Virus record (IMG/VR): IMGVR_UViG_3300046737_000227 | Location: 1 to 64,000 of that record | Length of the DNA stretch: 64,000 nucleotides | Origin: a virus | Strand: one strand, 5' to 3' | Shown here: positions 3,607-64,000 of the stretch, piece after piece | Numbering within the stretch: position 1 is the stretch's first letter | Layout of the letters: each line of letters begins with the position of its first letter | Notes under the pieces: model-generated | Seen by the model: only the letters and a program-made list of their open reading frames with translations | What the model was told of the DNA's origin: nothing | Database searches by the model: none | Made by a program: the position numbers and the translations under genes

Positions 3607-3902
3607 GCGGTGCGCGGGAGATTTTTCAGGTATTCGTATTGGCTCGGGGGGATGTCTTTGAAGTCGACCACCTCGAGGAGGGTCCAATGGGCCGAACCGT
3701 AGACTTTACCATGGCGCCGAGCGCGCGGGGACGCTGCGAAAAGCTCCACGCGCAGAGGCCAGCAGCACGCAAAGCCGGGCTCCCGCTGGGTCAGCTGGCG
3801 GATGGCCCGCGCGCGCAGCGCAGGCAGGGTTTTCCCGGACAGCGTGATGATGACGGCGCCCCGGAAGATAACCCGGGCGCGATAGGTGATTTGGTCGGTC
3901 AT
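3603..3902 (-). CDS. hypothetical protein (99 aa, internal ATG of ORF 3603..4094)
   Basis: Protein-like from MTDQITYRARV. The upstream part of the ORF overlaps CDS 3907-4098 in another frame. Confidence 0.5.
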   Translation of the reverse strand: MTDQITYRARVIFRGAVIITLSGKTLPALRARAIRQLTQREPGFACCWPLRVELFAASPRARRHGKVYGSAHWTLLEVVDFKDIPPSQYEYLKNLPRTA

Positions 3903-3906
3903 AAAA

Positions 3907-32957: not shown

Positions 32958-33172
32958 TGAAAGACTGCACACATCCACTTCATCGCGATGACGAGGGAGA
33001 TTTGTCCCGTCCGTGTTTTCCACGTGGCTCGACGAAAATCCTGCCCGGGCGCACGCTGCCCCCGCGCATCATCGTGAACCAGACGGACGACGTGCTCCAG
33101 GACGAGGCCGGTTTTCCGATTCTGGATGAAGTGACCGGTCAGACCATCATCGACGATTTGCGACGACAATGA
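32958..33172 (+). CDS. hypothetical protein (71 aa)
   Basis: ATG immediately after the upstream TAA. Internal to ORF 32717..33172. Confidence 0.4.
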
Positions 33173-34269
33173 AAGTTTCAACCTACGTAGCCGGAGAAGA
33201 GGCGAATCCCGAAGGGTGGCTGTTCATCGCCGAACGCCAGCCGGACGGTTCTTACGAGACAAAGAAAATCGCCCCCGACAAACTCGGTGAAACGGGTCCT
33301 GCGGGTCCGCAAGGACTGCCGGGCTCCCCCGGCGCGACGGGTGCGACCGGTGCGCCAGGACCAACCGGCGCAACCGGAGCCGCCGGCGCAACCGGCCCCC
33401 AGGGCGCGGACAGCTCCGACGAATGGGTGCATCCCGACGGGCTGTCGGTTGACCTTTTTGAGGAGTATCCGGCGGGCGCGATTGTCGCTCCGAATGGCGG
33501 ATTCGGCTGGGACACCGCCGGCGTCGTCTCGGGCGGAACCATCGTCCAGCGCAACGTCGCGAATGGCCGCACAGAAAAGCGACTCAGCTTGACCGCCGGT
33601 GAATTCGCTCGCAAGCTCTACGTTGGCGGTGACTGGCATCGCCTGCGAATTGCGGTCCTGCTGCGCGTTAACGGCGCGTCCACTTTTACCGGGAATGGCT
33701 TTATCGGGCTATGTAGCGGGACGGCCAATCCCTTCGGCGGGACGACGGACAACGCCGTCGGTATTTATTTTGACCCGGTGAATGTGAATTCCTGGGCGTT
33801 CACGAACGGGACGACGGCGGATTTCTTCGCGCAAAGCGTGGGCACGCGGTTCGTCACCAAGCGCGGCGCGAGTGTCACCGACCAAGGCGGTGGAGCGGGC
33901 TCGGACGGGCGTCGGTTCGCCTCGGACGAAGACCACCGCTCACTTTTCCTGCTCGAGTATCGTCGTCCGGTTTTTGCGACCGCGGCCACGTCGGTGAGTT
34001 ACGAAGTTTCGATGCGCTCGACTAACGCGGCCCAAGCCGAATTCTCGCTCAGCAAGCGCGCTCTGTTCGACGCAATTTTAGACAGCGCAAACAACAGCAC
34101 CATCTGTCAGAGTGATACGATGGTAACGCTGACCGGCTCGGGTTCGACCACGGTCGCCAACACTTTCAGTTTCGACGAGAGCACGGGCGCCTTCGACACG
34201 CTCAACCTCCGCTGGGACGGCGCGCACCCGCTGGAAATCTGCGGGCTGGCGGTTCACAAGATTTACTAA
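33169..34269 (+). CDS. collagen-like repeat fibre protein (366 aa)
   Basis: [41 protein letters not shown], then a globular domain paralogous to that of 34272-35582. Confidence 0.75.
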
Positions 34270-34271
34270 AA

Positions 34272-35582
34272 ATGAACGTCTCCCTCGAAGAAATTTTTGA
34301 GCAGTCGCCGGTCACGGTTAACGGTGACGGGCATCTGTTGATTGGCCAGCTCAACGATGGCGGCGTGATTCAGCTGAAGCGAATTCATGTTACCACGTTG
34401 AATCAAGCGGTCGGCCCCACGGGTCCCACGGGTCCCACGGGCGCGAACGGAACGAACGGCACGAACGGCGTGACGGGTCCGACCGGACCCACGGGTCCCA
34501 CGGGTCCCACCGGCCCGGTTGGTCCGACGGGTTCCAACGGTCCCACGGGTCCGACTGGGCCAGCAGGCAGCACGGGTGCAACCGGACCTACTGGTCCGAC
34601 GGGCGCGAGCGGCGCAACCGGCCCAACGGGAGCTGCCGGCGCAACGGGTCCTACGGGTCCCACGGGAGCCGCCGGCGCAACTGGCGCAACGGGTCCGACG
34701 GGTCCCACAGGCCCGACGGGAGCAAACGGCACGAGCGGAGCGGATGGCGCTTCGTTCACGGTCGATTCATTCGCGCTGGATAATTTTGATGGATACGCGA
34801 CTGGCTCCATCTCTACTTTTTCCAGTGGCTCGGGATGGAGTGGCTCGGGTGCCGCATCGGGCGCGACTATCGTCGAAGTTACGATGTCGGACGGTCGTAT
34901 TGATAGGCGCATGTCGCTTGTCGGCCCGGGGGAATTCAAGCGAAAAATGATTTGGGGCGAAAAATGGAAACGCCTTCGCATCGGTCTGTTGCTACGCATC
35001 AACGGCGGGTCGACCATCACGGGCGATTTCGCTTTCGGCGTGTGCTCGGGCATCACTAACGGGGTAGGAAGTGCGGCGTGCACTAACTTCATCGGAGCGA
35101 CGACCCGCGTGGGCAACACGAATCAGTATACTTTTGCTGCCGGCAGTGACGTCGGGGTTTTCACCGCGACCTTTGCCGGCGGCTCGTCCAAGCGTGTGAA
35201 TACCTTCACGGACTACGGCGGGGTGTCCTCGATGAAAGGTTATCCGGCGACGGGGTCTTCGGCGCTTTGCATCAACATGCTGGACATCAAACGGGGCCGA
35301 CTCGCTGCGAGTGCGACCTACAGCATGTTCGTCCAAGGCCCGACCGGGTCTGGCACCGCCGCGGGCAGCGCGGAGCAGTTCCTGGACTGGGGCACGCTGC
35401 TTCAGGCAGTTTCTGAGGTGGACACCACGAGCCCCTCCGGGTGGTGGTATGACGGGGCGGCATCCACGAACTCGGGGACCTTCGACGAATCCGCGGGGGC
35501 GCTGGATTCCATCAATGTCTGGTGGAGCCACGCCTCTACCGCCATCGAAATAGCGGGCATCGCGGTGATGAAAGCCTTTTGA
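34272..35582 (+). CDS. collagen-like repeat fibre protein (436 aa)
   Basis: About 40 Gly-X-Y triplets ([19 protein letters not shown]...), then a C-terminal domain aligning with 33169-34269: [20 protein letters not shown] vs [20 protein letters not shown]. Confidence 0.8.
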
Positions 35583-44745: not shown

Positions 44746-47700
44746 ATGCCGAGCGTCATTGAGGATTTAGGGGCAGGGGAATCTTTCACGGACACGCCCG
44801 TCCCGGTTGTGCCAGCTGAGGTGCCCGTCTACGGCGGCACGGCTCGGGGACTGAAATCCTCGAAGCCCATCACGCCGGAAGTTCAGGCGCAGCTCGACCA
44901 GTCCAGCAAAGGGATGCGGGCCGCACTCGCGGAAAAGGGAATCGAAGCCCCGCCGATGCTGCCCGAGGAGGCCGCGAAAGCCGCCGCTGAAAAAGAAAAG
45001 GAAGATAAAGCGTTCGCCGGACTGCAGGAGGTGGACCCTTTTAGCGTGTTGCAAGAAGTCGACCCCCGCTCTGTTGGGGAGGAGCCCGAATTCCGCGGCG
45101 TCCCGTTGGCCGACCGACTCGATACTGAGAAGCCCGATGTTCTCGCCAAGGACCCGAAGTTCAATGTGCTCGAGCACATCGCGACGAACCGCGACAATAT
45201 TTTTCAGGACCCCAATCGCTACAAAAAAGCGCTCGACACTTATCGCGCGCAAAAAGTCGTGGGCACCACGGCGAACAAGGTCTGGGAATCCGCCAAGAAA
45301 GAAACGGGTCCCCTGCTTTTGGAAATTCTCAAATCTTTGCCGAAGCGGCTCGAGAATGTTTCTGATATCGCCATTGGTCCGGTGATTAACGACATCACGG
45401 CAAAGTTTCGTCACGAGAGTGCCGACCCCGCGCTTCGCGCGCAGTGGGATAAAATGACAGACGACAACCGCGAGGCCGCCATCGCCGAGGCCATCGGCGG
45501 AACGCAGCTCGCCGTGGGCTCGCTTCAGGACATGGTGCGCCAGGGCGCGCGCAAGCTGACGGGTCCCGGATTCAATTTGAAACAGCTCAAGGTGACCCCT
45601 TCGGGTGTCTCGATGGAGCGCAAAGACTGGAGCAAAATTTCTGATGAAGAAGTCAAAAGCGAGTTATTCAAAGACCTCGGCTGGCACGACACCGTCCAAG
45701 GTATCTCGTCCGGCCAAACCGTCAAAGACCTCGTCAGCGAAGGCGTCCAGCTCAACCCGGAAAACATCAAGCTACTGAGCTTGACGGACCCGGTCACGCT
45801 CGTCGCCACTGCCGGCGGACTCAAGGCCGTGGGCGTCGGTGGCAAAGTTCTTTTTACCGCGGCCAACGAAGTTGGCGCGGGCAAAGCGCTGAACTACCTC
45901 GGACAGCTTTCCCAAACCGCCGCGGCGAAAACCACGCAGCTCGTCGGCACGGGCATCGAAAAAACCGGTAAGGTCATCGCCTCTGCGCTTCCCATCTCGG
46001 GCCAGGGCATTAGCGTCGGCGCCGGACTGAGTCTTTTAGGCGTCCCACACAAGGCCATCCTGGCGGCGCGTATCGCGGCCCCCGTTTTACAGAAGACGGG
46101 ACAGGTCGTTCGGGAAATCGGCGAAGCCGCCGGGGCCGCCCCTAAAGGGCAGCTGTCCCTGGGTCTGGAAACCACGACGGGCGCCAAGCTCGTCAACGCG
46201 GCGAAGACCGTTTCAAAATTTGTTCAACCGCCCGTGGCCGGCGCCGTCAAGGGCGCCGTGGGAACTGCGCCGCTGGCACTCGCGACCGACGAACCGCAAG
46301 GCGGGCTGCTCGGCGTGGGTGCCGTCGGCGGGGCCGTGCACTCTGCCCTCGGAGCCGTCAAAGGCGCGGTCGCCGAAGCCGGCGCGAAAAAATATTTCGA
46401 CCCGGGCCAAATCAACTGGGAAGCGACCCCGTCTCCTGGCTACGATAACTTCACCGAGCTGAACAAAGTTCACGAGCAGGTCGCCGCGTCCACGCCGTCT
46501 AACGCGCGGAACATGGTGGATAGCTTGCGCGAAACGCTGCGCCCGTTCGGCAAGAAACTTTTCCTCGTCGACGACGCGGCTTTTTCCAAGGCCATCGCTG
46601 ACGATACGGTCCGTGCGAACGGTGGCAAATCGCTCACGCCGGAACAACAGGCGGCGGTCACCCAGGAATCCAAAGCGCGCGGCGTTTCAAAAATCTGGAT
46701 GGCAGATGACGCGGGCAAGGGCGAGATGGTTACGCTCGTCAAAGGCTCCGCGAACGCTCCACACGAGTTTGCCCACGTCCTGGAATCCGTAATGGAGCCC
46801 GCGGGACGCGAAGCACTGCACGACGCGGTCCGCAAGGCATACACGCCCGGAGAACTGGAAGCCTTGCGGCAGCATTACGAAAAATCTTTGGGCAGCCGTT
46901 TTGCCGCGGACGTGCCGGGCGTGATGCAAGAAGTCCGCAGCGAATTCATCGCCGACAATTGGGCGAACCTGCTTTACAACACGTCGCTCGAGTCACTCGG
47001 GCTGCCGAAACCGAAATCCTCGTTCCGCGCAAAAATGCTGGACGCGGCGTTGACCTTGGGTGACGCGCTGGGTATCGACATGACGGCAGGCCGCGGCACC
47101 CCGGGGTTGAACCTGAAGCCGAGCTATAGCCTGCGCAAGGCGCTCGAGAACGCGAGCGGTGAAATTTTAGCGGAGCGTGACCAGCGCGCCGCGCAGCAAG
47201 CGACTGCTCCCGAGGTGAAGCCGGTGGCTGAAGCGCCGGCGGCTCCGGTCGAAGTTCCCGTCGAATCCGTGCAGCCGGAGCTGGATTTTACCACGCCCCC
47301 GCCCAAAGAAATTCCCGCTCAAGGCGAGCTCAATTTTGAGACGCCGTCGGCACAACCGAAAGTGGCCCCGGCAGCGACCCCTCCCGCGCCGGCACCCACC
47401 GAAGTCCCGCCGACGGTGTCTCCCTCCCGTGGGGTTTCCACCCCCGAGGCCACCGCCGCCCGTGCCGAGGTCACCAATACCGGGGTCGGTGCGGCCTGGG
47501 CCAAAGGCAAGGACAACGAGCAAGCGGTGACGGAAGTGAACAAGGCACTCGATGAAAGCGTCGGGCTGACCGTCGAACACGCCGGCGCTCCCAAAGCGTC
47601 TTTTAAGCCGACGGAGCCCGAACGCGCCGCCGAGGTGGAAGAAGGCCGCGGGTTGCCGCCAGAACAGCGCGAGCTGCATGCCGGGAAAAAATATCCCACG

Positions 47701-50700
47701 CGATGGGAGCAGACGAAAAGCGGGGAACCGCAGCTCGTCGCCCGTAGCGTGGACAAGGTTCTCTCCAACGTGGACCGCGCGGTGCAGTGGGGGAAATCCG
47801 CGGGCGAAGAAATCCCGTGGGAGACGGACGCGAACGGTGCGCTCACCGAAGCCGGCACCAACGAACTTTTGTCGGACCTGAACGCCTACTGGGATAACCA
47901 GGACCGAGGTTTTCGTGGCGGGGGCAAGCAGCTGGTTCGTCCCGGCGACGAGCTCGGTGCGGCAATCCCGCGTGAGCAAGGCGAGGGAAAAGTTTTAGGC
48001 GACGCCAAGGAACAATGGCTTAATCTGCTTCAAGGTAAAGACGTCGGCCCGCCCGAGACGGCGCGCGCCCAAAAAGGCAAGTTACCTGCCAACATTAAGG
48101 CGCAGGAAATCCGCGCTGCCCAGGGCGACGTGTCCGAACGCATCGCGCCGGGGACCGACATTCCGATTTATCCCGAGAAGGTGACCGGGGGCCGCGGACC
48201 CGTAGAAATCAAGGAGACGAACCCGCTGCGCAATCGTCTGCGCGCCGCCGGCATGCCGGTGGGGGACCTGCACACGGTCGTCGAGCGACTCAACGCTGCG
48301 GACATCGTCAAAGCCGAACGCGCCCCCGAATTAACGGGACGCGGCGGACAGACGGACACCGCCCGCGCGGGATACCTGACGGACCAGCCTGTGGACAAAA
48401 CTATCGCAGACGTGCTCGCGGATTCCCCGGACGACTGGATGAAACGGTTCGGTCCGAAGAATACGTTGACGGGGTCGGCGTATGAGCTGGGGCTGAACCT
48501 CACGTCGAAGGACGAGTTGAACGCGTTGCGCGAGGCGCAGTCCAAGGCGTCCGCTGCCCAAGTCTCTGCCCTCGCAGAAGCCCGGGCGGGGAACCTCGAC
48601 AAGCTGGACGAGGCTTACGCGCTCGCGACCAAGGCCCAATTTTTCCGTGAGGCGATTGAAGCCGCCACGGACACCGCTTCTGCCGCCGGTCCATCCGGCT
48701 GGCGCCGCGCGTTCCCGGACCGCACTGCTCCGTTCGCGGAAGTCAGTGCCGCAGCCGCGGAACGCGCTGGCTTCCTTTCTGAAAAAGAACTGAAGTCCAT
48801 TCGCAATGGCGAAAAAGATGGTGAAACTTTCAACGGGGACGGAACCGTTTTTGTCCCGCCCGAGGACGCCTCGCTGGACGTCGTCACGCTCGCTAGCGTG
48901 AACCTGCCGGCGGCAGAGCTGAACGCGAAGAACGTCGCGGCGGCGTTGAAGCCCTACAAGGGCCTTCTGGGGAATGAGAACATCAAAGCGGGAATCTTCC
49001 GGCTGTCGGAGCCCGATGCCGAAGGCCGGCCCCAGGTCAGCGTGGATGTGAACGCCATCGTGGACCAGAAGCACCGCAAGTCGTCTTTGGCTTTTGCCCG
49101 TGCGAATAACCAGGAAGCCATTTTCGACATGGCCCGCGGCAAAACGGTTGATGCCGGCGGCACGGGTAACACGGTCCTCCGGGACCCGAAAGAAATCGCC
49201 CAGGCCGCGGATGCGTTGCAGGCCGGGGAAAATTACCTGGAGACGAAAGCGCGTTTCAAAGCGGCGGAAGCGAGGCGCAAGGGTCCGGTTCGTCAGGCGA
49301 TTGAAGACATCAAGGGGGACCTCGATATCACCGTCAAAGCGATTACCCGAGAATCCGAAGCCGCCGCGCGGAAACGCGTCGCGGAGACGGACTACTCGAA
49401 ATACAACGTGCCCGAGGAACAAAAGCCGAAGGGCAAGGGACCGACTGGTTGGGCACTTCCCGACGGGCAGTTCATCCGACTCGACACGGACTATCATCAG
49501 ACGTGGCTCGGGGAACACTCCGAGCAGTTGAACAAACAATACGGAACCGAATTCTCCAAGGACGCCACGGTCGAGGACCGACAAGCCGCGCTCAACAAGG
49601 GATTCATCCGCGTTCGCGAATACGGCGGCAAGCTGGCCATCGAAGCGAACCAGAAATTTTTCCGTGGCAAGGGCAAGCGCGCGATTGAAGTGCTGCTCGA
49701 CGACCACGCCAAAGACATCGACTCCGCGCGAATCACGCTCCTGGATAACGAGGGCAAGGTGACGGACACGATGGCGGACAACAAGCTTTTTGAGAGTGAA
49801 AATCCGGCACAGGATTTAATGGACCTAGTGGATGCGGTTGACCCGAACAAGGTCGCTCCGAAGCGGGGTCCCTCGGCCATTCAAATCGCGCGCAGCCGCG
49901 AGGGTTACCTCACGCCGGAAATTCCGACGGACGAGGCCATCACCGACGCGCTGAGCGAGGAAAAGAAACCTTTTGTCGGAGCCGCGCGCGACCTGGATGA
50001 AGGCACCCCGGTCGGCCTGCGGATTGACATCCCGGCTTATAACCGCACGGGCAAATACGTCATCACCGTCCACGAAAAAGCCGAAGGCGGGCGCGTGGGC
50101 AAGCGGATTGGTTACGACTCCATCGCGACCGTGGACAACCCGACCTTTTTCTCCAACACCAAGGGCGCGGCAAAAATCGCTGAGGGCGCGGCGAAGTTTC
50201 CCATCGCGACCGTCGAGGGCGAATGGAATCCCTCGCGTGAACTGCCGGCGGACCTCTCCGAGTGGACCGAGGTTGGTTTCAATCCCACCAAGCACGACTA
50301 TTTCTACGAGAAGGGAACCGACGAACCGGTGACCGGCGGAACCCAGGCCGTGAGCGTGGGCAACTCGGTTTTCGTCAAGGACGCCACGTTCGGCAGCAAA
50401 GCGGACGTCGCGGCACGCGGCGGGTATCTCCCTGGCGAAAAGCTGACGCCCGAGACGGCAGAAGCCGCGGCGGACAAGCACAACGAGGAATACACCAAGT
50501 CGTATCCCGAGGCATACCCCACGCGGTTCATCCGCGACTCCAAAGGCAAGCTCAAGCTGCAAGGCGGCAAGCTCGTCCCCGGTGACGAGGAAGCCGTTCT
50601 CGACAAAACGCCGCTCGCGCTTGACGCGGTGCGGGAGAACCCGGACGCGCCGGCGCACGAAGTTATTTCGGACGCGCTCGCGGACAAAATCGTGGCCGAA

Positions 50701-51660
50701 GCTCACGAGGCGCTCAAGGACGAATCCATGAAGGCCGGCCTGACGTGGTATGCCGACGCGGTGAAGCTCATCAACAAATTTTTCGGCAAGGACGCTTCGC
50801 TGTTCGCGCAGCTGTTGGCGGCGACGTCGCCGCAGAACGGCGTGCAACCGAACTTCGCCTACGCGGTGGACGCCTGGAACGCCGTGAAGCGTGGCGAGTA
50901 TGAGCCGTTCGTGAAAAAATATCTCGAGGGACGCGAGCAGTGGAAGACCGGTGGCACGCCTGAAATCGCCGAGTGGGAAGCCGAGAAGGGCAAGAAGTGG
51001 AAAGCCGGCACGGGTGCCGCGGCCCAAGGTCTGCGCAACAACTTTTTGACGTGGTGGGTGGACAAGCACGAGATTTTGCCCAAGCGCGAAGGCGGCAAGC
51101 TTTACGGCATGCATTCGTTCCCTGTGCTCGATGTCATCTCCGGCACGTGGCTCGAGGACGTGGGCGGCCCGAAGGTGCGGAACTTTTTGGCGAACCTCAC
51201 AGGCGAAGGACACGACGCCACCATCGACATTTGGGCCACACGATTCCTGATGCGTATCGCGCAGTCCGAGGACACCCTCAAAGGTCGCTGGCGCGTCGCA
51301 CCGCCGGCGGGATGGCAAATTTCCGCGGAGAACTTTAACCTTGCGCAATCCGCGTTCCGAAAAGCCGCTGAAAAGTTTGGCACCACGCCGGACTCGCTGC
51401 AAGCGTTGGTCTGGTTCTCGGAAAAACATCTCTGGGAACAGAAAGACTGGACCGGGTATGTCGGCGCGGCGAAATCGGACTACGCATATTGGCTGAAGTC
51501 GCTGGAGCCCGGCGAACACCCCGAGACTTACAACATCCCGGTCAGGGCCAAGGAAGAAGCCACTCGCCAAGGCCGCGAGGAACGCGCCCGCGCGGCGGCG
51601 AAGCGGAAAAATGCCGCTCAGGGCGAACTTGACATTCCGGTCAACCCGGTGGAAGATTGA
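44746..51660 (+). CDS. giant multidomain virion protein (2304 aa) with HEXXH motif
   Basis: Uninterrupted 6.9-kb ORF. HEFAH at 46762-46776. Several Ala/Pro-rich linkers. Position matches ejected internal core proteins. Confidence 0.75.
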   Translation: MPSVIEDLGAGESFTDTPVPVVPAEVPVYGGTARGLKSSKPITPEVQAQLDQSSKGMRAALAEKGIEAPPMLPEEAAKAAAEKEKEDKAFAGLQEVDPFSVLQEVDPRSVGEEPEFRGVPLADRLDTEKPDVLAKDPKFNVLEHIATNRDNIFQDPNRYKKALDTYRAQKVVGTTANKVWESAKKETGPLLLEILKSLPKRLENVSDIAIGPVINDITAKFRHESADPALRAQWDKMTDDNREAAIAEAIGGTQLAVGSLQDMVRQGARKLTGPGFNLKQLKVTPSGVSMERKDWSKISDEEVKSELFKDLGWHDTVQGISSGQTVKDLVSEGVQLNPENIKLLSLTDPVTLVATAGGLKAVGVGGKVLFTAANEVGAGKALNYLGQLSQTAAAKTTQLVGTGIEKTGKVIASALPISGQGISVGAGLSLLGVPHKAILAARIAAPVLQKTGQVVREIGEAAGAAPKGQLSLGLETTTGAKLVNAAKTVSKFVQPPVAGAVKGAVGTAPLALATDEPQGGLLGVGAVGGAVHSALGAVKGAVAEAGAKKYFDPGQINWEATPSPGYDNFTELNKVHEQVAASTPSNARNMVDSLRETLRPFGKKLFLVDDAAFSKAIADDTVRANGGKSLTPEQQAAVTQESKARGVSKIWMADDAGKGEMVTLVKGSANAPHEFAHVLESVMEPAGREALHDAVRKAYTPGELEALRQHYEKSLGSRFAADVPGVMQEVRSEFIADNWANLLYNTSLESLGLPKPKSSFRAKMLDAALTLGDALGIDMTAGRGTPGLNLKPSYSLRKALENASGEILAERDQRAAQQATAPEVKPVAEAPAAPVEVPVESVQPELDFTTPPPKEIPAQGELNFETPSAQPKVAPAATPPAPAPTEVPPTVSPSRGVSTPEATAARAEVTNTGVGAAWAKGKDNEQAVTEVNKALDESVGLTVEHAGAPKASFKPTEPERAAEVEEGRGLPPEQRELHAGKKYPTRWEQTKSGEPQLVARSVDKVLSNVDRAVQWGKSAGEEIPWETDANGALTEAGTNELLSDLNAYWDNQDRGFRGGGKQLVRPGDELGAAIPREQGEGKVLGDAKEQWLNLLQGKDVGPPETARAQKGKLPANIKAQEIRAAQGDVSERIAPGTDIPIYPEKVTGGRGPVEIKETNPLRNRLRAAGMPVGDLHTVVERLNAADIVKAERAPELTGRGGQTDTARAGYLTDQPVDKTIADVLADSPDDWMKRFGPKNTLTGSAYELGLNLTSKDELNALREAQSKASAAQVSALAEARAGNLDKLDEAYALATKAQFFREAIEAATDTASAAGPSGWRRAFPDRTAPFAEVSAAAAERAGFLSEKELKSIRNGEKDGETFNGDGTVFVPPEDASLDVVTLASVNLPAAELNAKNVAAALKPYKGLLGNENIKAGIFRLSEPDAEGRPQVSVDVNAIVDQKHRKSSLAFARANNQEAIFDMARGKTVDAGGTGNTVLRDPKEIAQAADALQAGENYLETKARFKAAEARRKGPVRQAIEDIKGDLDITVKAITRESEAAARKRVAETDYSKYNVPEEQKPKGKGPTGWALPDGQFIRLDTDYHQTWLGEHSEQLNKQYGTEFSKDATVEDRQAALNKGFIRVREYGGKLAIEANQKFFRGKGKRAIEVLLDDHAKDIDSARITLLDNEGKVTDTMADNKLFESENPAQDLMDLVDAVDPNKVAPKRGPSAIQIARSREGYLTPEIPTDEAITDALSEEKKPFVGAARDLDEGTPVGLRIDIPAYNRTGKYVITVHEKAEGGRVGKRIGYDSIATVDNPTFFSNTKGAAKIAEGAAKFPIATVEGEWNPSRELPADLSEWTEVGFNPTKHDYFYEKGTDEPVTGGTQAVSVGNSVFVKDATFGSKADVAARGGYLPGEKLTPETAEAAADKHNEEYTKSYPEAYPTRFIRDSKGKLKLQGGKLVPGDEEAVLDKTPLALDAVRENPDAPAHEVISDALADKIVAEAHEALKDESMKAGLTWYADAVKLINKFFGKDASLFAQLLAATSPQNGVQPNFAYAVDAWNAVKRGEYEPFVKKYLEGREQWKTGGTPEIAEWEAEKGKKWKAGTGAAAQGLRNNFLTWWVDKHEILPKREGGKLYGMHSFPVLDVISGTWLEDVGGPKVRNFLANLTGEGHDATIDIWATRFLMRIAQSEDTLKGRWRVAPPAGWQISAENFNLAQSAFRKAAEKFGTTPDSLQALVWFSEKHLWEQKDWTGYVGAAKSDYAYWLKSLEPGEHPETYNIPVRAKEEATRQGREERARAAAKRKNAAQGELDIPVNPVED

Positions 51661-58436: not shown

Positions 58437-58630
58437 TTCCTCACCTCCCGGTCGCACCACATGAAGTGGTCCTTGGCGTCATCCCCCACGGCCCCGCAGT
58501 GGCTGCACACCGGCAGCTCACCGCACGTTGCGCAGACATAGCCCCAGATGTGCCGCTGCACCCCGACGCCGATGTCCACTTCCTCGGCGCATTCCTCGGT
58601 GTCGACGCGCCCGCAGATTGGACACTTCAC
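58433..58630 (-). CDS. zinc-ribbon protein (65 aa)
   Basis: CPICG...CATCG...CSHCG. Confidence 0.55.
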   Translation of the reverse strand: MKCPICGRVDTEECAEEVDIGVGVQRHIWGYVCATCGELPVCSHCGAVGDDAKDHFMWCDREVRK

Positions 58631-59418
58631 ACTTCCCCCTGCGCGTCGACGCCGGCCTTGGCGAATGCCTTGGCGAGCTTGCCGATGGCGACGTCGTGGA
58701 TTTGGCGAACCCGTTCGCGCGTGATGTCGAGCGTGTCCCCGATTTCGCGGAGGTTCAGGTCCTCGTAATAAAACATACGGAGGATTTTCAGCTCCTTAGC
58801 CGTGAGCGCACTGGACTGCGCCTTTGCCAAGCATGCCAGCACCAGCTCGCGGCTGTCGTTCTCAACGTCAGGCTGCACGATGCCGGCATCGTTGTCCAGG
58901 AGCCCGAGGTTTTCCCCGTCGGTGTCCGGGAAGTTCCCGTGATAGTCGACGATATCCTTGGACCGCCAGAGCGTGGCGATTTCGGACCGGATGTAAGGCT
59001 TCGCGTAGCTCGAGAAGCGCTTCCCGCGCGTGTGGTCGAACGCCTCGAACGCCTTCATCAAGCCGAAGTTCGCCGCACTGACGACCTCGTTGTCCGGCAG
59101 TTTGCCCTTCACGATTTTTCGCGCGTAGGTGGCCGCAAAAAGAAGGTGGTTGGTGATGATGTATTCGCGCGCCTGCTGCACCTCCGTCGCCGTGGCCTTG
59201 ACGCCGCGGGCGGTGGTGAACAGCCGCGTCTCGTCCTCGGCGGACAAGAGGGTGAACTTGAGGTCGGTCCCGGGAGCGTAGTAACTTTGGTTGTCGGTCA
59301 TAGAAAAGTAGTGGGGGCACAGGGGCATCCACGGTCCGAAGCGAGAGAGGTATTCCTCCGCTCGATTCGAGCCCGTCGGGTTGGGCCGGTCTGAATATCC
59401 CACGATTAGGTTCTTCAT
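58627..59418 (-). CDS. sigma-70-family RNA polymerase sigma factor (263 aa)
   Basis: Region 2-like NFGLMKAFEAFDHTRGKRFSSYAKPYIRSEI. Region 4 LTAKELKILRMFYYEDLNLREIGDTLDITRERVRQIHDVAIGKL. Confidence 0.85.
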   Translation of the reverse strand: MKNLIVGYSDRPNPTGSNRAEEYLSRFGPWMPLCPHYFSMTDNQSYYAPGTDLKFTLLSAEDETRLFTTARGVKATATEVQQAREYIITNHLLFAATYARKIVKGKLPDNEVVSAANFGLMKAFEAFDHTRGKRFSSYAKPYIRSEIATLWRSKDIVDYHGNFPDTDGENLGLLDNDAGIVQPDVENDSRELVLACLAKAQSSALTAKELKILRMFYYEDLNLREIGDTLDITRERVRQIHDVAIGKLAKAFAKAGVDAQGEV

Positions 59419-61646
59419 TTCTGGTATGGGTTGTTTGGGGTCTGTGAGATTGCTTTGGCTATCGGCCCTTGCGGGTAGCGGTTGCCGCGGCAAATTGTGA
59501 ACGTGCGGCGATGTTCGTCGCCACGGATTTTAATGTCGAAACCTTTTTGCGCGAGCACGGGCAGCATCTTGCCCAGGGACTCCGCGGTCGTGCGGCCCAT
59601 GGCCTCGGACATGTGACAGTCAATGGCCATCGACATGTAAAGCTGGTAGGCGGTCCCTTCCCAGCAAGTTTTCTCCGGATGCCGCTCGACGAAGTAAAGG
59701 CGCATCCACTCGTCGACCTGCTCACCGATGGCGGCAGCGGACGACGACTGATTAGCTTCCTGAATGAGCGATGCATCATGGTAATGAACTGGTCCGTATC
59801 GCTTTTCTTTTCCCAGCCGGCGGGCCGGGATTTCGTAGTCGAGCAGATACCGCCCGAAGTATGGCAGCTCCCGAACGAGAATGCGATTTAATTCGTCGCG
59901 GTCCGGAAAAAGAAAGCCGTCCGTGCGGTTGGCTACGCAGCGAAAAAGATTCAGCTTGTCGAGGTTCGACATGCCTGTCTCGGGTAGCCCGCGCAAGCTG
60001 TCCGGGTCATCGTTGAGCGAGCCGAGGATACGCCCGGACCAGTCGATAAGGCCGGCTTTGCGGAATTTTTCGTTCGAGCGGAACGCCTGATTCGCGCAAG
60101 CGCGCTTCAGCATCTCGGTGAAGATGCGGTGCGAGCGTGGGTCGAGCCCCATCATGTTGTCGTCGATTGCCCAGATGAACACCTCGAACAGTTCGCTGTT
60201 GAACTGGTCGCGGCCCATTATCCAGTCTTGGCACTCCGCGTAGCCGCTGAACAGCACGCCGACGATGTAGCGCGTGTTGAGCGTCTTGCCGCAGGCCGGG
60301 GGACCGACGAAGAAGGTGACCTGTCCCGGCTTCGGGTTGCGCATGAACGCGGAGGTGTAAGCGTAGGCGAGATAGGCGATGTATGCCTCGAGCGCCTCGC
60401 CGCTGGTCAGCCAGCCGTCGTAGAACTTCGCGAGGAACGGGAAGTTGTCGCCCCACTTCTGCGTCCCGGACGCCGGCTGGAGCACGTCGCGATTGTGAAC
60501 ATTGAGAAACCTTTTTCCGTGCATCGGCATGATACCTTTTTGATAGAAGGAGAAGCTACCGGCGGATTCTATCAGTCCGTTGTTTTGGATGTGCGTGATT
60601 GCGTCATCCACCGACGAAGAGTTTTTTCCTTTGGGCCGGCGGTCGGACAGCCCGCGCTCACAGCGGAGGTGTCGCCCCAGGTCGTCCGCGCCGCCGAAGA
60701 TGTAGTGACCGGTGCCCTGCTTGCGGATGAACTGTTTGCCGTCGTAAAAGATTCCCTCGACCGCGTTGCCCATCAGCTTCAGCTGATATTCAGCGACGAA
60801 CTGCGCGCCGAAAAAGTCGGACCACAACATGAACGGCTTGTGCTGCGCACTTTTGGAGAACGAATAAATGCCCTCCTCGTTCACGATGGCGGACCGGGGG
60901 CTCTCCGATTCGGGTTCCCAGAACGTCGGACCCTGCGCGTCCTTCTTAAACTCCGCGGGACCGCCGGGCCACGCGGTGACGAAGTTCGGATACTTTTCCG
61001 CCATCTTCGCGGCGACGATGTCGAGTGGGATTTTTACCGCGTCCTTGACGCCGCCCCAGTTGAATTCCTTGACCTTGGTGAGGAGCCAGCCGAGGACCAA
61101 GTCTTTAGCCAGCGGCACGTCGTGGATTTTTTCCCAGCGGCAGCCGTTCGTGTAATAGCGCGTGACGGACTCCACCGCCGGCTCGTCCACGCCGGGGCAC
61201 TGGCGATACGGCAGCAGCTCGTGGATTCGCTGCAGGATGAACTTGGCATAGTCCGCGTCGCCCAGGAAAGCGATGGGCACCTCGAGCAGCCACACCAGCC
61301 GATACTGGCCGGAAAAAGTCGTCTCGATGTAGTTCGGTTTGCGGTCCCCCATGCGCTCGAGCGCGCCATCCAGCTCGGGTCGCGTCAGCTTGCAGTCCAC
61401 GTCGATGGGAACCGCCCGACCGTCGAACGGCGGATTCTCTTTGCTGATGCGTAGGTTCGGGTTGACGCCTTGGTAGCACGAATACATCTGATGCGTCGTG
61501 CTCGGACGGTTGGCCCAGGCATCGCGCGCCTTTTTATCCGAGAAACAGTCCGGCGGGACCTTGGCGAGATTTTCCGGTGGAAACTCCCAGGGCACACAAG
61601 GGGTGACTTCGTGCGAGCTGAGGTTGCGCAGAGAGAAAAGGTTCAT
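59415..61646 (-). CDS. primase-polymerase / SF3-type helicase fusion (743 aa)
   Basis: Walker A GPPACGKT and Walker B-like IWAIDDN. The N-terminal region has PIDVD and TTFSGQYRLVWLL. ATGA overlaps at both ends. Confidence 0.75.
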   Translation of the reverse strand: MNLFSLRNLSSHEVTPCVPWEFPPENLAKVPPDCFSDKKARDAWANRPSTTHQMYSCYQGVNPNLRISKENPPFDGRAVPIDVDCKLTRPELDGALERMGDRKPNYIETTFSGQYRLVWLLEVPIAFLGDADYAKFILQRIHELLPYRQCPGVDEPAVESVTRYYTNGCRWEKIHDVPLAKDLVLGWLLTKVKEFNWGGVKDAVKIPLDIVAAKMAEKYPNFVTAWPGGPAEFKKDAQGPTFWEPESESPRSAIVNEEGIYSFSKSAQHKPFMLWSDFFGAQFVAEYQLKLMGNAVEGIFYDGKQFIRKQGTGHYIFGGADDLGRHLRCERGLSDRRPKGKNSSSVDDAITHIQNNGLIESAGSFSFYQKGIMPMHGKRFLNVHNRDVLQPASGTQKWGDNFPFLAKFYDGWLTSGEALEAYIAYLAYAYTSAFMRNPKPGQVTFFVGPPACGKTLNTRYIVGVLFSGYAECQDWIMGRDQFNSELFEVFIWAIDDNMMGLDPRSHRIFTEMLKRACANQAFRSNEKFRKAGLIDWSGRILGSLNDDPDSLRGLPETGMSNLDKLNLFRCVANRTDGFLFPDRDELNRILVRELPYFGRYLLDYEIPARRLGKEKRYGPVHYHDASLIQEANQSSSAAAIGEQVDEWMRLYFVERHPEKTCWEGTAYQLYMSMAIDCHMSEAMGRTTAESLGKMLPVLAQKGFDIKIRGDEHRRTFTICRGNRYPQGPIAKAISQTPNNPYQK

Positions 61647-62521
61647 TTGCAGTAGCAGGGAACCTCGTTTGCCTCGGCAGAGATGGGACAGCCGCGGAGC
61701 CACGGGGGGCAGGTCGACATGATGTCGCTCACCATCTCGGCGGTGATATAGCTCGCGCACTCGCAGACCGCTTCATCGTGCACGGTGAACAGCACGCGGA
61801 TGCCGGGCGTGCGGGACAACAGCACGACGTGAAACGCGAACACGTCGCGCGCGGTCGCCTGCACCAAATTTTCGCAGAGCAGCCCGCCGTAAAAAACAGA
61901 GCGCATGCCGCCGACGTCCGCGGTATAAACCAGCTTGCGCTTCATCGTGCCCGTCGGCTCGCCGTCGTCATCCGTCTCGGGCACCAGCCGCCATTCCGAC
62001 CGGACGTCGCGGTAGACCATCGTGCGGCCCGAGGGCAGCTCCATCCGGAAGTCCCCGCCACACGCCGCCTTGAAGCCCTCGTCCAGCTTGCGCCAGAGCG
62101 CCACAATGCCGGGATTCGAGTCGCGGAATTCCTTGACGATGCGGCGCGAGGTGGCCCCGTAGCCGGACCGCATCTTCGGGGTGCCGTCCTCGTTCCAGCA
62201 CAGCTCGCCGTCGCGCGTTTTCTTCTGCTCGAACTTCGGGTCGTCCTTGGTGATGTCCAGGCCGGCCATCGACTTGGCCATCGTGATGAACTTCAGCCAG
62301 CCGGCGCCGTAGCCCAGGCCCAGCACGCGCACCTTGGAAAGCGCATACATGCCGGGGTTTTCTTTCTTCAGGTCGCCGCCGTCCCAGCCCATCGTGGACT
62401 TGGCGTGTGCGACATAAGGCGAGTCACCATCCGCCATCGCGCGCAGCGCAATGACGTCGTTGATTAGCCAGGAGAGAACGCGAGGTTCGATTTGGCTCAG
62501 GTCAGAAACTATCATCTTCAT
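61643..62521 (-). CDS. family A DNA polymerase, C-terminal fragment (motifs A, B, C; 292 aa)
   Basis: SDLSQIEPRVLS (motif A), RVLGLGYGAG (motif B region), FTVHDEAV (motif C). Confidence 0.85.
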   Translation of the reverse strand: MKMIVSDLSQIEPRVLSWLINDVIALRAMADGDSPYVAHAKSTMGWDGGDLKKENPGMYALSKVRVLGLGYGAGWLKFITMAKSMAGLDITKDDPKFEQKKTRDGELCWNEDGTPKMRSGYGATSRRIVKEFRDSNPGIVALWRKLDEGFKAACGGDFRMELPSGRTMVYRDVRSEWRLVPETDDDGEPTGTMKRKLVYTADVGGMRSVFYGGLLCENLVQATARDVFAFHVVLLSRTPGIRVLFTVHDEAVCECASYITAEMVSDIMSTCPPWLRGCPISAEANEVPCYCK

Positions 62522-62757
62522 GCGACCTCCGCAGGTTTATCCGCCGTCAGCTTCTGCGGCTGAAGTCGGGTTCCACTAGTCAAAATTTGGTGCCACACGC
62601 GGCCCCGAAAAAGGACGGTCAGCCGCTCTCGCCATGTGAGCTTCCAACATGCGGTTACCCGTCCCGTCGCGCACGAATAGTGCGCCGGAAACGGCAGATA
62701 GGGCGGCTGGTTTTTCGCGATGACCAGCGTCTGTTCACGGAATTCGATTGGTGTCAT
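62518..62757 (-). CDS. 79-aa ORF inserted between the two polymerase fragments
   Basis: ATGA overlaps on both sides. Protein-like sequence MTPIEFREQTLVIAKNQPPYLPFPAHYSCATGRVTACWKLTWRERLTVLFRGRVWHQ... Confidence 0.5.
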   Translation of the reverse strand: MTPIEFREQTLVIAKNQPPYLPFPAHYSCATGRVTACWKLTWRERLTVLFRGRVWHQILTSGTRLQPQKLTADKPAEVA

Positions 62758-63839
62758 GTTCGGGGAATGATTAGCCGGCGCACGTCTAACGTATGCACCG
62801 CGTCTTTTTTGTCGTCGACAAGCACGCCGCTCGCGTTAGCGTAGAGAGGCACCTTGCGAAAATTCTGGAAGTTCAGCCCGAAGTCGCCGGACCAGCGGCC
62901 CGTGTGCGCGCCAAAATATTTCAGGCCGAAGGGCATCGTGCCGTCCGGGCGCACCCGGATTTTGAAGGTCTTCAGCGTGGTCAACAGCTTGTTCGTCTGC
63001 CGCCAGTCGCCCACGGCTTTTATCCACGGGAACCGCGGCGAGTATTCCGCTTCCCAGGAGTCGAACGCATCCACGCCATCGCGCGACTTGACCGGCGGGC
63101 ACGGGATGTTGCACTTGCGACACTCCGCGGCCATTTGTTTGGGTGACGTGGGCGGGTGGCCCTGCGCGGTCCACGGTAGCGCGAACTGGCAAGTGATGAC
63201 CATCGTCTCGCAAATGCGGATGTATTCGTCGAGCAGCGGCACGTCAATTTGCACGCCGGTCATCCCTTGGTCGATGGTGATGCGGGACAACTCGCGCTCG
63301 AGCTCGGGCCACTGCGGACCAAACTTGTTCCAGAGGAGCCAGCAGTGGTAGGCGTCGCCGCGGCCATACTCCAGCATCCGGTCCCAGCCGGCGGCGTCGG
63401 CCTTGAGCTCCGCAGACGTCTTGCCATTCGCCTCCTCGCGCGTGGACTTGTCCACCCGGATGTCCAGCAGATGTTCGCACGCATCCGCCAGCGAGCGGAG
63501 GTTGCAGAGGTAAGAGCTCAAATTTGCAGTGCAGTGCCACGTAATTTTTTTCTTGGGTGCCCAGCCGCGGCGGACCGTCTCGTTGTAGACCGTGCTGTCG
63601 AACTGAGCATTGTGGGCGACCAGCGTCACGCCATCCGTGAAGTTGCTGTCCTCGAGGGTGTCCCAGTTGAAGTCATTCGGTGAGCCGGCCCAGGAATTGG
63701 ACCCGTCGCTCACCGATAAAAGATAGGGGTCGAACCGGTCGTCCCGGCAGTAGCCCTCGGCACCCAGGTGCTTGATATCGTATTTGAGCTTCGTGTCAAA
63801 AAACGTTTCGTAGTCGAAGCCGAGATGGGATATCTTCAT
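62754..63839 (-). CDS. family A DNA polymerase, N-terminal fragment (3'-5' exonuclease plus start of the polymerase domain; 361 aa)
   Basis: Exo I FDYET, Exo II HNAQFD, Exo III YGRGDAY, then GAHTGRWS and QNF. Ends VRRLIIPRT just before where motif A is expected. Confidence 0.85.
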   Translation of the reverse strand: MKISHLGFDYETFFDTKLKYDIKHLGAEGYCRDDRFDPYLLSVSDGSNSWAGSPNDFNWDTLEDSNFTDGVTLVAHNAQFDSTVYNETVRRGWAPKKKITWHCTANLSSYLCNLRSLADACEHLLDIRVDKSTREEANGKTSAELKADAAGWDRMLEYGRGDAYHCWLLWNKFGPQWPELERELSRITIDQGMTGVQIDVPLLDEYIRICETMVITCQFALPWTAQGHPPTSPKQMAAECRKCNIPCPPVKSRDGVDAFDSWEAEYSPRFPWIKAVGDWRQTNKLLTTLKTFKIRVRPDGTMPFGLKYFGAHTGRWSGDFGLNFQNFRKVPLYANASGVLVDDKKDAVHTLDVRRLIIPRT

Positions 63840-63849
63840 TACAATCTAA

Positions 63850-63877
63850 CCAGTGCGGACTTTTCGGAAAATGTCAA
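63850..63877 (-). promoter_or_regulatory. class B promoter for the polymerase operon
   Basis: TTGACA TTTTCCGAAAAGTCCG CACTGG TTAGATTGTA ATG. Confidence 0.5.
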
Positions 63878-63893
63878 GCCCCTCCGTGGGCTT
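63876..63893 (-). terminator. hairpin AAGCCC-ACGGAG-GGGCTT merging into the -35 and an ATTTT run
   Basis: Lies 22 nt after the stop of the upstream partial gene. The stem overlaps TTGACA. Confidence 0.45.
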
Positions 63894-63915
63894 GGCACCA
63901 GAGGAGAGTTTAAGG

Positions 63916-64000
63916 CTATTCAACGTCGTCACTGACAGGAGAAAATTCATCCAGGAATTTTTCTATTCCCCAAAGAATTTGCTCGCGCGTGAAATGGGAA
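63916..64000 (-). CDS. 3' end of a gene continuing beyond the window
   Basis: Open frame ...HFTREQILWGIEKFLDEFSPVSDDVE, with a stop at 63916-63918. Confidence 0.35.
   Translation of the reverse strand, partial: SHFTREQILWGIEKFLDEFSPVSDDVE

Follow-up and report, generated by a model that had tools for sequence, protein, structure and literature searches.

A phage family A DNA polymerase gene cut just before motif A, and the small gene that probably entered the cut later

Introduction

Family A DNA polymerases (PolA) are much-used tools of molecular biology and, as a rule, consist of one chain. Just one split in this family has been analysed in detail, in 2023, and it lies at the boundary between exonuclease and polymerase: Czernecki et al. 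described a gene fission at this point in S-SBP1-like, T7-like cyanophages, called it the first PolA split, predicted that the products reassemble non-covalently and excluded frameshifting (PMC10201439). LUZ24-like phages have separate exonuclease and polymerase genes, labelled ‘DNA polymerase part I’ and ‘part II’ (PMC3890496), and in the OM43 phages MEP401 and MEP402, which are related to Zobellviridae, PolA is found in two open reading frames (ORFs) with a small ORF between them, an arrangement for which the authors suggest an intron (PMC10580990). Here, we analyse a PolA gene in two pieces at positions 61643–63839 of a 64,000-nucleotide (nt) stretch of viral DNA (IMG/VR record IMGVR_UViG_3300046737_000227, positions 1 to 64,000; hereafter ‘the window’), in which an ORF of 79 amino acids (aa) separates the N-terminal from the C-terminal part of the enzyme.

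Divided phage genes are also known outside family A. The family B polymerase products gp43A and gp43B of Aeromonas phages 25 and 44RR co-purify and are active, and in phage 25 a seg-like homing endonuclease in the gap ‘possibly invaded an already split gene’ (PMC2988022), while DNAP-N and DNAP-C of PhiKZ form a 1:1 complex that is active (PMC13648687). Phage genes in pieces, such as nrdA with mobE in Aeh1 and gene 39/60 with mobA in T4, still yield a functional enzyme (PMC2988022).

For the locus in the window, we consider it likely that a PolA gene underwent fission before motif A, that its products form a non-covalent two-chain enzyme and that the 79-aa ORF came later as a passenger. A two-piece PolA cut before motif A has already been reported, if little studied, and the window is a further example; what is new here, judging from genome comparisons, is that the cut persists without an insert, appears to have arisen more than once and seems to provide a slot that acts as a landing pad for small genes.

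Predicted location of the break

Relatives of the C-terminal fragment were collected from IMG/VR, metagenomes and an exact-protein look-up, and every junction was read (L-numbers below are loci and P-numbers are proteins). The locus in the window consists of three successive minus-strand ORFs in three different frames. The N-fragment gene (N; 62754..63839, 361 aa) encodes exonuclease motifs, the thumb and the first palm segment and ends in ...DVRRLIIPRT before its stop; the 79-aa ORF (M; 62518..62757, 237 coding nt plus stop) follows; and the C-fragment gene (C; 61643..62521, 292 aa) starts with MKMIVSDLSQIEPRV and carries the motif A strand DLSQIEPR, the fingers and motifs B and C. On the same strand, one ATGA overlap (‘tcat’ on the plus strand) joins the N stop to the start of the 79-aa ORF (62754..62757), a second, also ‘tcat’ on the plus strand, joins the stop of that ORF to the C start (62518..62521), and a Shine–Dalgarno-like GGAGG element (62526..62530, minus strand) lies 4 nt 5' of the C-fragment ATG and is common to the insert-free relative L016.

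Both fragments match PHROG 17 ‘DNA polymerase’ (E = 1e-32 to 1e-34), N at 669–1002 and C at 1007–1230, and since they adjoin on the phrog_17 profile they are adjacent pieces of one protein model. The exonuclease motifs of N are FDYET (ExoI, DxE), HNAQFD (ExoII, NxxxFD) and YGRGD (ExoIII, YxxxD), whose columns are invariant or nearly so in 61 intact homologues; N also matches phrog_192 and, weakly, PF01612 (E = 2e-4). Beyond ExoIII it runs for a further ~180 residues, through the thumb and the TGRWS motif (HTGRWSGD in its palm segment). Close homologues of N have 357–366 aa, and the more distant ones are intact proteins of 580–632 aa. In C, residues D7/E12 (motif A), K63/Y71 (motif B) and H248-D249-E250 (motif C) are invariant in 13 C fragments of the split clade and align with D705/E710, K758/Y766 and H881-D882-E883 of the Klenow fragment. 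The exonuclease motifs, the polymerase motifs A, B and C and a Klenow-like fold (modelled on the intact homologue P0159) thus make this a family A enzyme, whereas the catalytic core, normally on a single polypeptide, is here divided by a stop and a start before motif A that are kept across the clade.

The break was mapped with a profile built from C-side homologues, which matched sequences in the PDB; phmmer with the N fragment alone found no match there. On Klenow, this profile puts the last residue of N near E697 and the first residue of C near Y699, which is six residues ahead of the catalytic D705. An AlphaFold2 (AF2) model of P0159 (612 aa, 54% identical to N, alignment of 61 sequences) has a mean predicted local distance difference test (pLDDT) score of 95, and its top Foldseek matches are the Klenow and Bst large fragments (template modelling score 0.65–0.72, full length). 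In this model, a strand at 349–350 is followed by a coil at 351–355 (P-R-P-G-K) and by the strand at 356–362 that bears the motif A aspartate D361. The equivalents of the N end and the C start are 353 and 355, so the cut falls inside the coil. As modelled, it lies inside the catalytic palm, in the turn between two palm beta-strands and 6–8 residues before the motif A aspartate; the N chain would supply exonuclease and thumb together with the first strand of the palm, and the C chain the fingers, motif C and the strand that bears motif A, with the palm sheet completed between the two chains. Intact relatives, which are ordinary single-chain PolAs, run through the cut site uninterrupted (...IIPRPGKKMIVSDLSQIEPRV), with 340–480 codons upstream of it.

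Relation to described split genes

The genome of MEP401 has a comparable arrangement. There, ORF13 ends in ...EIKTLFLSRYGE followed by a stop (...LFLSRYGE), ORF15 starts with MILNADAKALEW and a 77-aa ORF lies between them; the turn that is cut is the one cut in the window, with an offset of one residue (approximately Klenow 699/700 compared to 697/699). The window shares with MEP401 the position of the cut, directly N-terminal of the motif A strand, and a small ORF that separates the halves. MEP401, however, represents a distant PolA lineage in an AT-rich marine podophage, compared to a soil phage with 60% GC here; its 77-aa ORF is unrelated to the 79-aa ORF; and its authors report no insert-free split relatives, whereas the clade of the window keeps the split without an insert.

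The S-SBP1-like and LUZ24-like systems resemble the window in having a phage PolA in separate genes that is predicted to reassemble non-covalently. Their cut is at the boundary of the exonuclease and polymerase domains, whereas the cut in the window, with the long continuation of N past ExoIII, is predicted to be inside the catalytic palm. The LUZ24 labels ‘part I’ and ‘part II’, considered as a candidate split at motif A, proved to denote the separation of exonuclease and polymerase plus a further interruption of the polymerase gene around the endonuclease VII gene (gp35), which we take to be the reported intron. Another candidate split marker, ‘polA.2’ of Streptococcus phage 315.6, is a single ORF of 640 aa.

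With the split family B enzymes the window has in common a replicative polymerase in two cistrons, and the history suggested for phage 25 is the one that we propose for the 79-aa ORF. The polymerase family and the cut positions are different, and those systems have experimental support, whereas the window is known from its sequence. The likeness to Aeh1 nrdA/mobE and to T4 gene 39/60 with mobA is that of an essential enzyme gene parted by a small gene, but the insert of the window has no endonuclease features and the split persists without it in close relatives. Among the split polymerases collected here, a homing-endonuclease insert is found only in L177, as a remnant.

Independent assemblies and selection

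Four further public contigs (L008, L009, L098 and L099), which come from different samples, carry the arrangement of the window at 99% identity, and 10 contigs are on record with the exact 79-aa protein. Its presence in independent assemblies excludes an assembly error, and the polymerase is almost certainly genuinely split. Within the split clade, pairwise dN/dS is ~0.14–0.25 for N and C alike (by fragment, 0.17–0.29 for N and 0.14–0.24 for C), and it is 0.14–0.17 in the unsaturated pair L010/L012 (dS 0.25–0.33). Both halves of the polymerase are under purifying selection, and the low dN/dS, the invariant catalytic residues and the exonuclease motifs together rule out a pseudogene. The Pfam scores of N and C are both under the gathering thresholds, which is a property of a divergent subfamily, as its intact members score just as weakly.

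The earlier note on this DNA, made from the letters of the window, had described a family A polymerase cleanly cut at motif A whose segments are contiguous in intact PolA, had seen a 237-bp ORF joined to both fragments by ATGA in three different frames, and had taken the cut to be apparently natural. The intact homologues (...IIPRPGKKMIVSDLSQIEPRV), the reading of the ORFs and the recurrence of the structure in independent assemblies bear this out, and the cut is no sequencing artefact. That note had also said what would overturn it, namely a single reading frame after re-sequencing, or homologues in which the 79-aa segment is an ordinary in-frame insertion; the independent assemblies do not restore a single frame, and the segment is absent from the intact homologues, which contain no in-frame insertion.

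A variable slot

The clade of the window, defined by an identity range of 67–100%, contains five states of the slot between the two halves. The 79-aa ORF is found in the window, L008, L009, L098 and L099. In three sub-lineages of split relatives at 67–79% identity, the slot is empty and N and C overlap directly by ATGA: the junction reads ...LIIARP, stop, MKLIV in L012/13, ...PRPEAA, stop, MKMIV in L014/16/17/18/102 and ...PRPDAV, stop, MKMIV in L104/105. L010/11 instead have a 30-aa tail on N. In L015 (3834–4004) and L103, the slot is occupied by an unrelated, strongly hydrophobic ORF of 56 aa with ATGA on both sides, which is probably a two-helix membrane protein, and in L106 by a homologue of it; these three relatives are at 67–69% identity. 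This ORF is missing in the close relatives L104/L105, a polymorphism of presence and absence among near neighbours. Further away, the halves of L019 (59% identity) and L020 (52%), which the trees set apart as lineages split on their own, are likewise joined by a bare ATGA. The ORFs that occupy the slot (79 aa, 56 aa and a 73-aa ORF in L177) are mutually dissimilar by BLASTP.

The ORF between the halves

The 79-aa protein is one of a large family of small, uncharacterised phage proteins. In a database clustered at 90% it has 30 homologues at 52–74% identity, in all of which F6, W38, E44, R45, G52 and W55 are kept, and its dN/dS compared to homologues is 0.11–0.24. Run against 1.84 billion proteins, a profile of the family retrieves 2,853 cluster representatives with E ≤ 1e-3, and 1,293 of these representatives have E ≤ 1e-10. 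Members (P0269–P0418) usually form the N-terminal domain of proteins of 80–200 aa and sometimes occur in tandem (two stretches in P0269). Absent from Pfam, the family is a candidate for a new domain-of-unknown-function entry. No significant match that would indicate a function was obtained in Pfam, in PHROG or with an AF2 model (pLDDT 77) compared by Foldseek to the PDB; matches in BFVD are to uncharacterised viral proteins only, phrog_11885 (unknown function) is touched by distant members only, and Pfam finds no known domains on ten longer fusion proteins of the family. A similarity to nucleases was likewise not found among Pfam, PHROG or PADLOC-type matches or PDB folds.

The nearest homologues (74%, 69% and 65% identity) sit in contexts other than a polymerase. 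Sites of homologues include small-gene arrays in the vicinity of an RNA ligase gene (L182, L183), the neighbourhood of MerR-like and terminase genes (L005–L007) and that of an integrase gene (L003), and in Croceibacter phage P2559S a distant homologue is flanked by genes for an exonuclease and SSB. In the window, the final codons of the ORF and the GGAGG-N4-ATGA element after them (cctgcggaggtcgc followed by ATGA) match the tail of the N gene in the insert-free L016 (ccggaggccgc followed by ATGA), which suggests that the ORF was inserted just upstream of an existing restart cassette and became fused to it. Taken together, a split without insert, a varied slot, homologues elsewhere and a reused N tail suggest that the 79-aa ORF entered an already split gene, and from these comparisons it is probably a later passenger, neither the cause of the split nor a part that the polymerase requires. 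This changes one claim of the earlier note, which had the polymerase split by the insertion of this ORF: the same split is found without it in relatives at 67–79% identity and with the different 56-aa ORF in others. The earlier note had also judged the insert too small for a homing endonuclease or an intein. It is indeed no intein, and a homing endonuclease is not recognisable in it, with no nuclease match in profile searches or among PDB folds; the profile searches that the note had proposed for the 79-aa protein lead to the large phage family described above.

Phylogenetic distribution of the break

Neighbour-joining trees with 200 bootstraps were built from 278 columns of the C region and 320 columns of the N region. 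The group of the window is monophyletic in 200/200 bootstraps of both trees, and all split sequences together are monophyletic in 0/200 of both, with L019 and L020 grouping with the intact L110/L113. The lack of monophyly of the split genes points to at least two events at the same site, either a second fission or a re-fusion, and would imply that the same loop was cut at least twice within this PolA subfamily.

N fragments that end at the same residue are also found in other lineages (P0165, ...DIRALFISRK; P0200, ...NFRNLIIPRP; and P0205). In the independently split genome of P0200 (L177, Logan SRR31878174 contig), where the C fragment starts with GTG, the slot holds a 73-aa ORF (3685–3906). 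This ORF resembles HNH homing endonucleases in their AP2-like DNA-binding part (phrog_99, E = 1.7e-13) with the HNH domain missing, and thus looks like a decayed homing endonuclease. In yet other lineages, the cut lies ~35 codons further upstream (P0197/L178, L131/L150, P0195 and P0174), within a variable insert that separates the NxQN motif from the D-I-R strand (L178/L179 3583–3586; L131, L150), with ATGA-type overlaps and no ORF between. From these sequences, a proneness to fission seems to be general in the stretch that precedes motif A. As a separate observation, the PolA frame in the bacterial contigs L054 (a Luteolibacter metagenome-assembled genome) and L078 (Verrucomicrobiaceae bacterium E54) is interrupted elsewhere, which leaves only 110 and 204 codons, respectively, upstream of motif A; these could be decaying prophage genes or further split variants.

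Genomic context

The polymerase genes belong to an operon that continues on the minus strand with a DUF5906 primase/helicase-like gene (59415..61646) and a gene for a phage sigma-70-family factor (58627..59418). A further ATGA overlap (61643..61646, minus strand) joins the C stop to the likely true start of the primase/helicase-like gene (MNLFSL...), where the gene calls of relatives begin at the equivalent ATGA, and the ATG of the sigma factor gene overlaps the helicase stop in the same way (ATGA, 59418–59415). These starts, 61646 and 59418, agree better with relatives than the GTG at 61760 and the TTG at 59493 given by the ORF list. N, M, C, helicase and sigma thus form a chain of five genes with four ATGA overlaps, and such overlaps are a general habit of the operon and no special mark of the polymerase junctions or of the insertion. 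No promoter-like or terminator-like sites were seen on the coding strand.

From matching IMG/VR and JGI contigs, the genome of the phage has a size of ~72–75 kb. The window also encodes a glycosyltransferase and collagen-like tail fibres, whose collagen-repeat genes (33169–35582) flank a structural region with a single ORF of 2,304 aa (44746–51660, plus strand); for most of the window's large ORFs of structural type, neither Pfam nor PHROG gives a match. The wider PolA subfamily is mostly found on contigs binned with Verrucomicrobiota (Akkermansia, Chthoniobacterales, Luteolibacter and Opitutae), and this binning suggests Verrucomicrobiota as the host phylum.

Discussion

We propose that a replicative PolA gene underwent fission in the short turn before motif A. 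At the site, intact genes read ...CCN GGN AAG AAA ATG ATH..., and split genes read ...ATG AAR ATG ATH... after a short indel that shifts the frame of N into TGA; a small indel and a change from AAG to ATG at the native ...GKKM... codons would suffice for the fission. N and C would then be translated separately from one mRNA and assemble non-covalently, with the ATGA overlaps and, in some genomes, the GGAGG before the C start coupling the translation of the two. The gene boundary created by the fission would afterwards serve as an insertion slot for small genes, and in the lineage of the window the 79-aa gene would have landed in it, keeping ATGA on both sides and taking over the old restart cassette. 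That the enzyme acts as a non-covalent heterodimer is likely, and the presumption of a heterodimeric polymerase in the earlier note agrees with what we regard as the best reading of selection on both halves and of the family B precedent.

Several points weigh against this account. The assembly of N with C and the activity of the enzyme are deduced from selection and from that family B precedent. The empty slot is taken as the ancestral state by parsimony, and an original mobile element may have been lost later. Motif B (62320–62350, C residues ~59–71) reads Y-A-L-x-K-x-R-V-L-G-L-G-Y-G in this PolA subfamily, with a nearly invariant Tyr at the position of Klenow R754 (Lys minus 4) and an Arg at Lys plus 2, which is an unusual dNTP-binding motif for family A and makes the active site not fully canonical. 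The trees are neighbour-joining trees of ~280–320 columns and not maximum-likelihood trees, re-fusion in L110/L113/L024 may have occurred instead of a second fission, and L019 and L020 are represented by one contig each. Finally, the neighbourhood in P2559S indicates that the 79-aa protein may have a role related to replication.

Other explanations differ in what they make of the junction. The enzyme would be one chain after all if its halves were put back together in the RNA (self-splicing intron), in the protein (split intein) or during translation (programmed frameshift or ribosomal bypass), an idea that the authors of MEP401 raised for their similar arrangement (PMC10580990). The search of 61400–64000 against Rfam at E ≤ 10 returned no intron or other family, its sole match being a chance snoRNA. 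Phage PolA genes with group I introns are known from SPO1 and LUZ24, a precedent that counts for rejoining, but the insert is a conserved protein-coding gene and the gap of −4 nt in insert-free relatives leaves no room for an intron or a bypass. An intein was rejected in turn, as the N end ...LIIPRT and the C start MKMIVSD are polymerase sequence that aligns residue for residue with intact homologues, with ~2 residues missing and no intein blocks. Programmed frameshifting or bypass fared no better: the junction DNA varies among relatives with no common slippery heptamer, and protein-coding inserts of 163–232 nt are incompatible with it. We therefore find rejoining of any kind highly improbable. 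Equally improbable is a decaying pseudogene or an assembly artefact in a phage that uses another polymerase; the Pfam scores under the gathering thresholds could be read in this way, but the same structure recurs in several independent samples, dN/dS is ~0.14–0.25 on N and C with invariant catalytic residues, and the low scores are those of a divergent subfamily, both halves of which match PHROG 17 at E = 1e-32 to 1e-34.

The origin of the cut and the role of the insert leave more room for other accounts. The split could be the work of a mobile gene, namely the 79-aa ORF or a free-standing homing endonuclease whose place this ORF took later; the insert-free relatives would then be secondary losses, on the model of Aeh1 nrdA/mobE. 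Homing endonucleases do split phage genes, such as mobE in nrdA and mobA in gene 60 (PMC2988022), the cut adjoins DNA that is among the most conserved in the gene, and the independently split L177 holds its HNH/AP2 remnant in exactly this slot. Against such an origin, insert-free genomes occur in three sub-lineages of the window clade (L012, L014 and L104), which would require repeated loss; the 79-aa protein has no similarity to nucleases or homing endonucleases, and elsewhere its homologues are encoded by small genes of the ordinary, free-standing kind; the 3' end of its ORF is grafted onto a tail that the N gene already had; and small indels with the change from AAG to ATG are enough to explain the fission. 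An endonuclease-driven origin is thus unlikely, although conceivable, in the lineage of the window, and the L177 remnant together with the literature on mobE, mobA and seg43 (PMC2988022) keeps it in play for some lineages. The 79-aa protein could instead be a functional third subunit, a clamp, bridge or regulator recruited for both chains: it is coupled by ATGA between the halves, is under purifying selection, belongs to a very large phage-associated family and has a distant member between exonuclease and SSB genes in a replication module. Relatives at 67–79% identity with the same split lack it, however, two sub-lineages have an unrelated membrane ORF in its place, and its nearest homologues lie in small-gene arrays or by MerR-like, terminase and integrase genes, none of them beside polA, which makes recruitment as a subunit improbable. 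We give similarly little weight to the speculation that it is an accessory factor of replication and binds to the two-chain polymerase, perhaps where the new termini are exposed; if it were, the slot before motif A would be a site where phages plug in modulators of a split polymerase.

Fission before motif A with later insertion adds a cut in the palm to the exonuclease–polymerase boundary known so far as a place where family A polymerases come apart. This cut is tolerated, is maintained under selection and is also present in the distant lineage of the OM43 phages, for which the present comparison clarifies that a small intervening ORF does not have to be an intron, nor does it have to have caused the split. 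For engineering, it points to Klenow E697–Y699 as a naturally validated split site for fragment-complementing polymerases. For the phages themselves, it suggests that a gene boundary created by fission may become a landing pad for small mobile genes.

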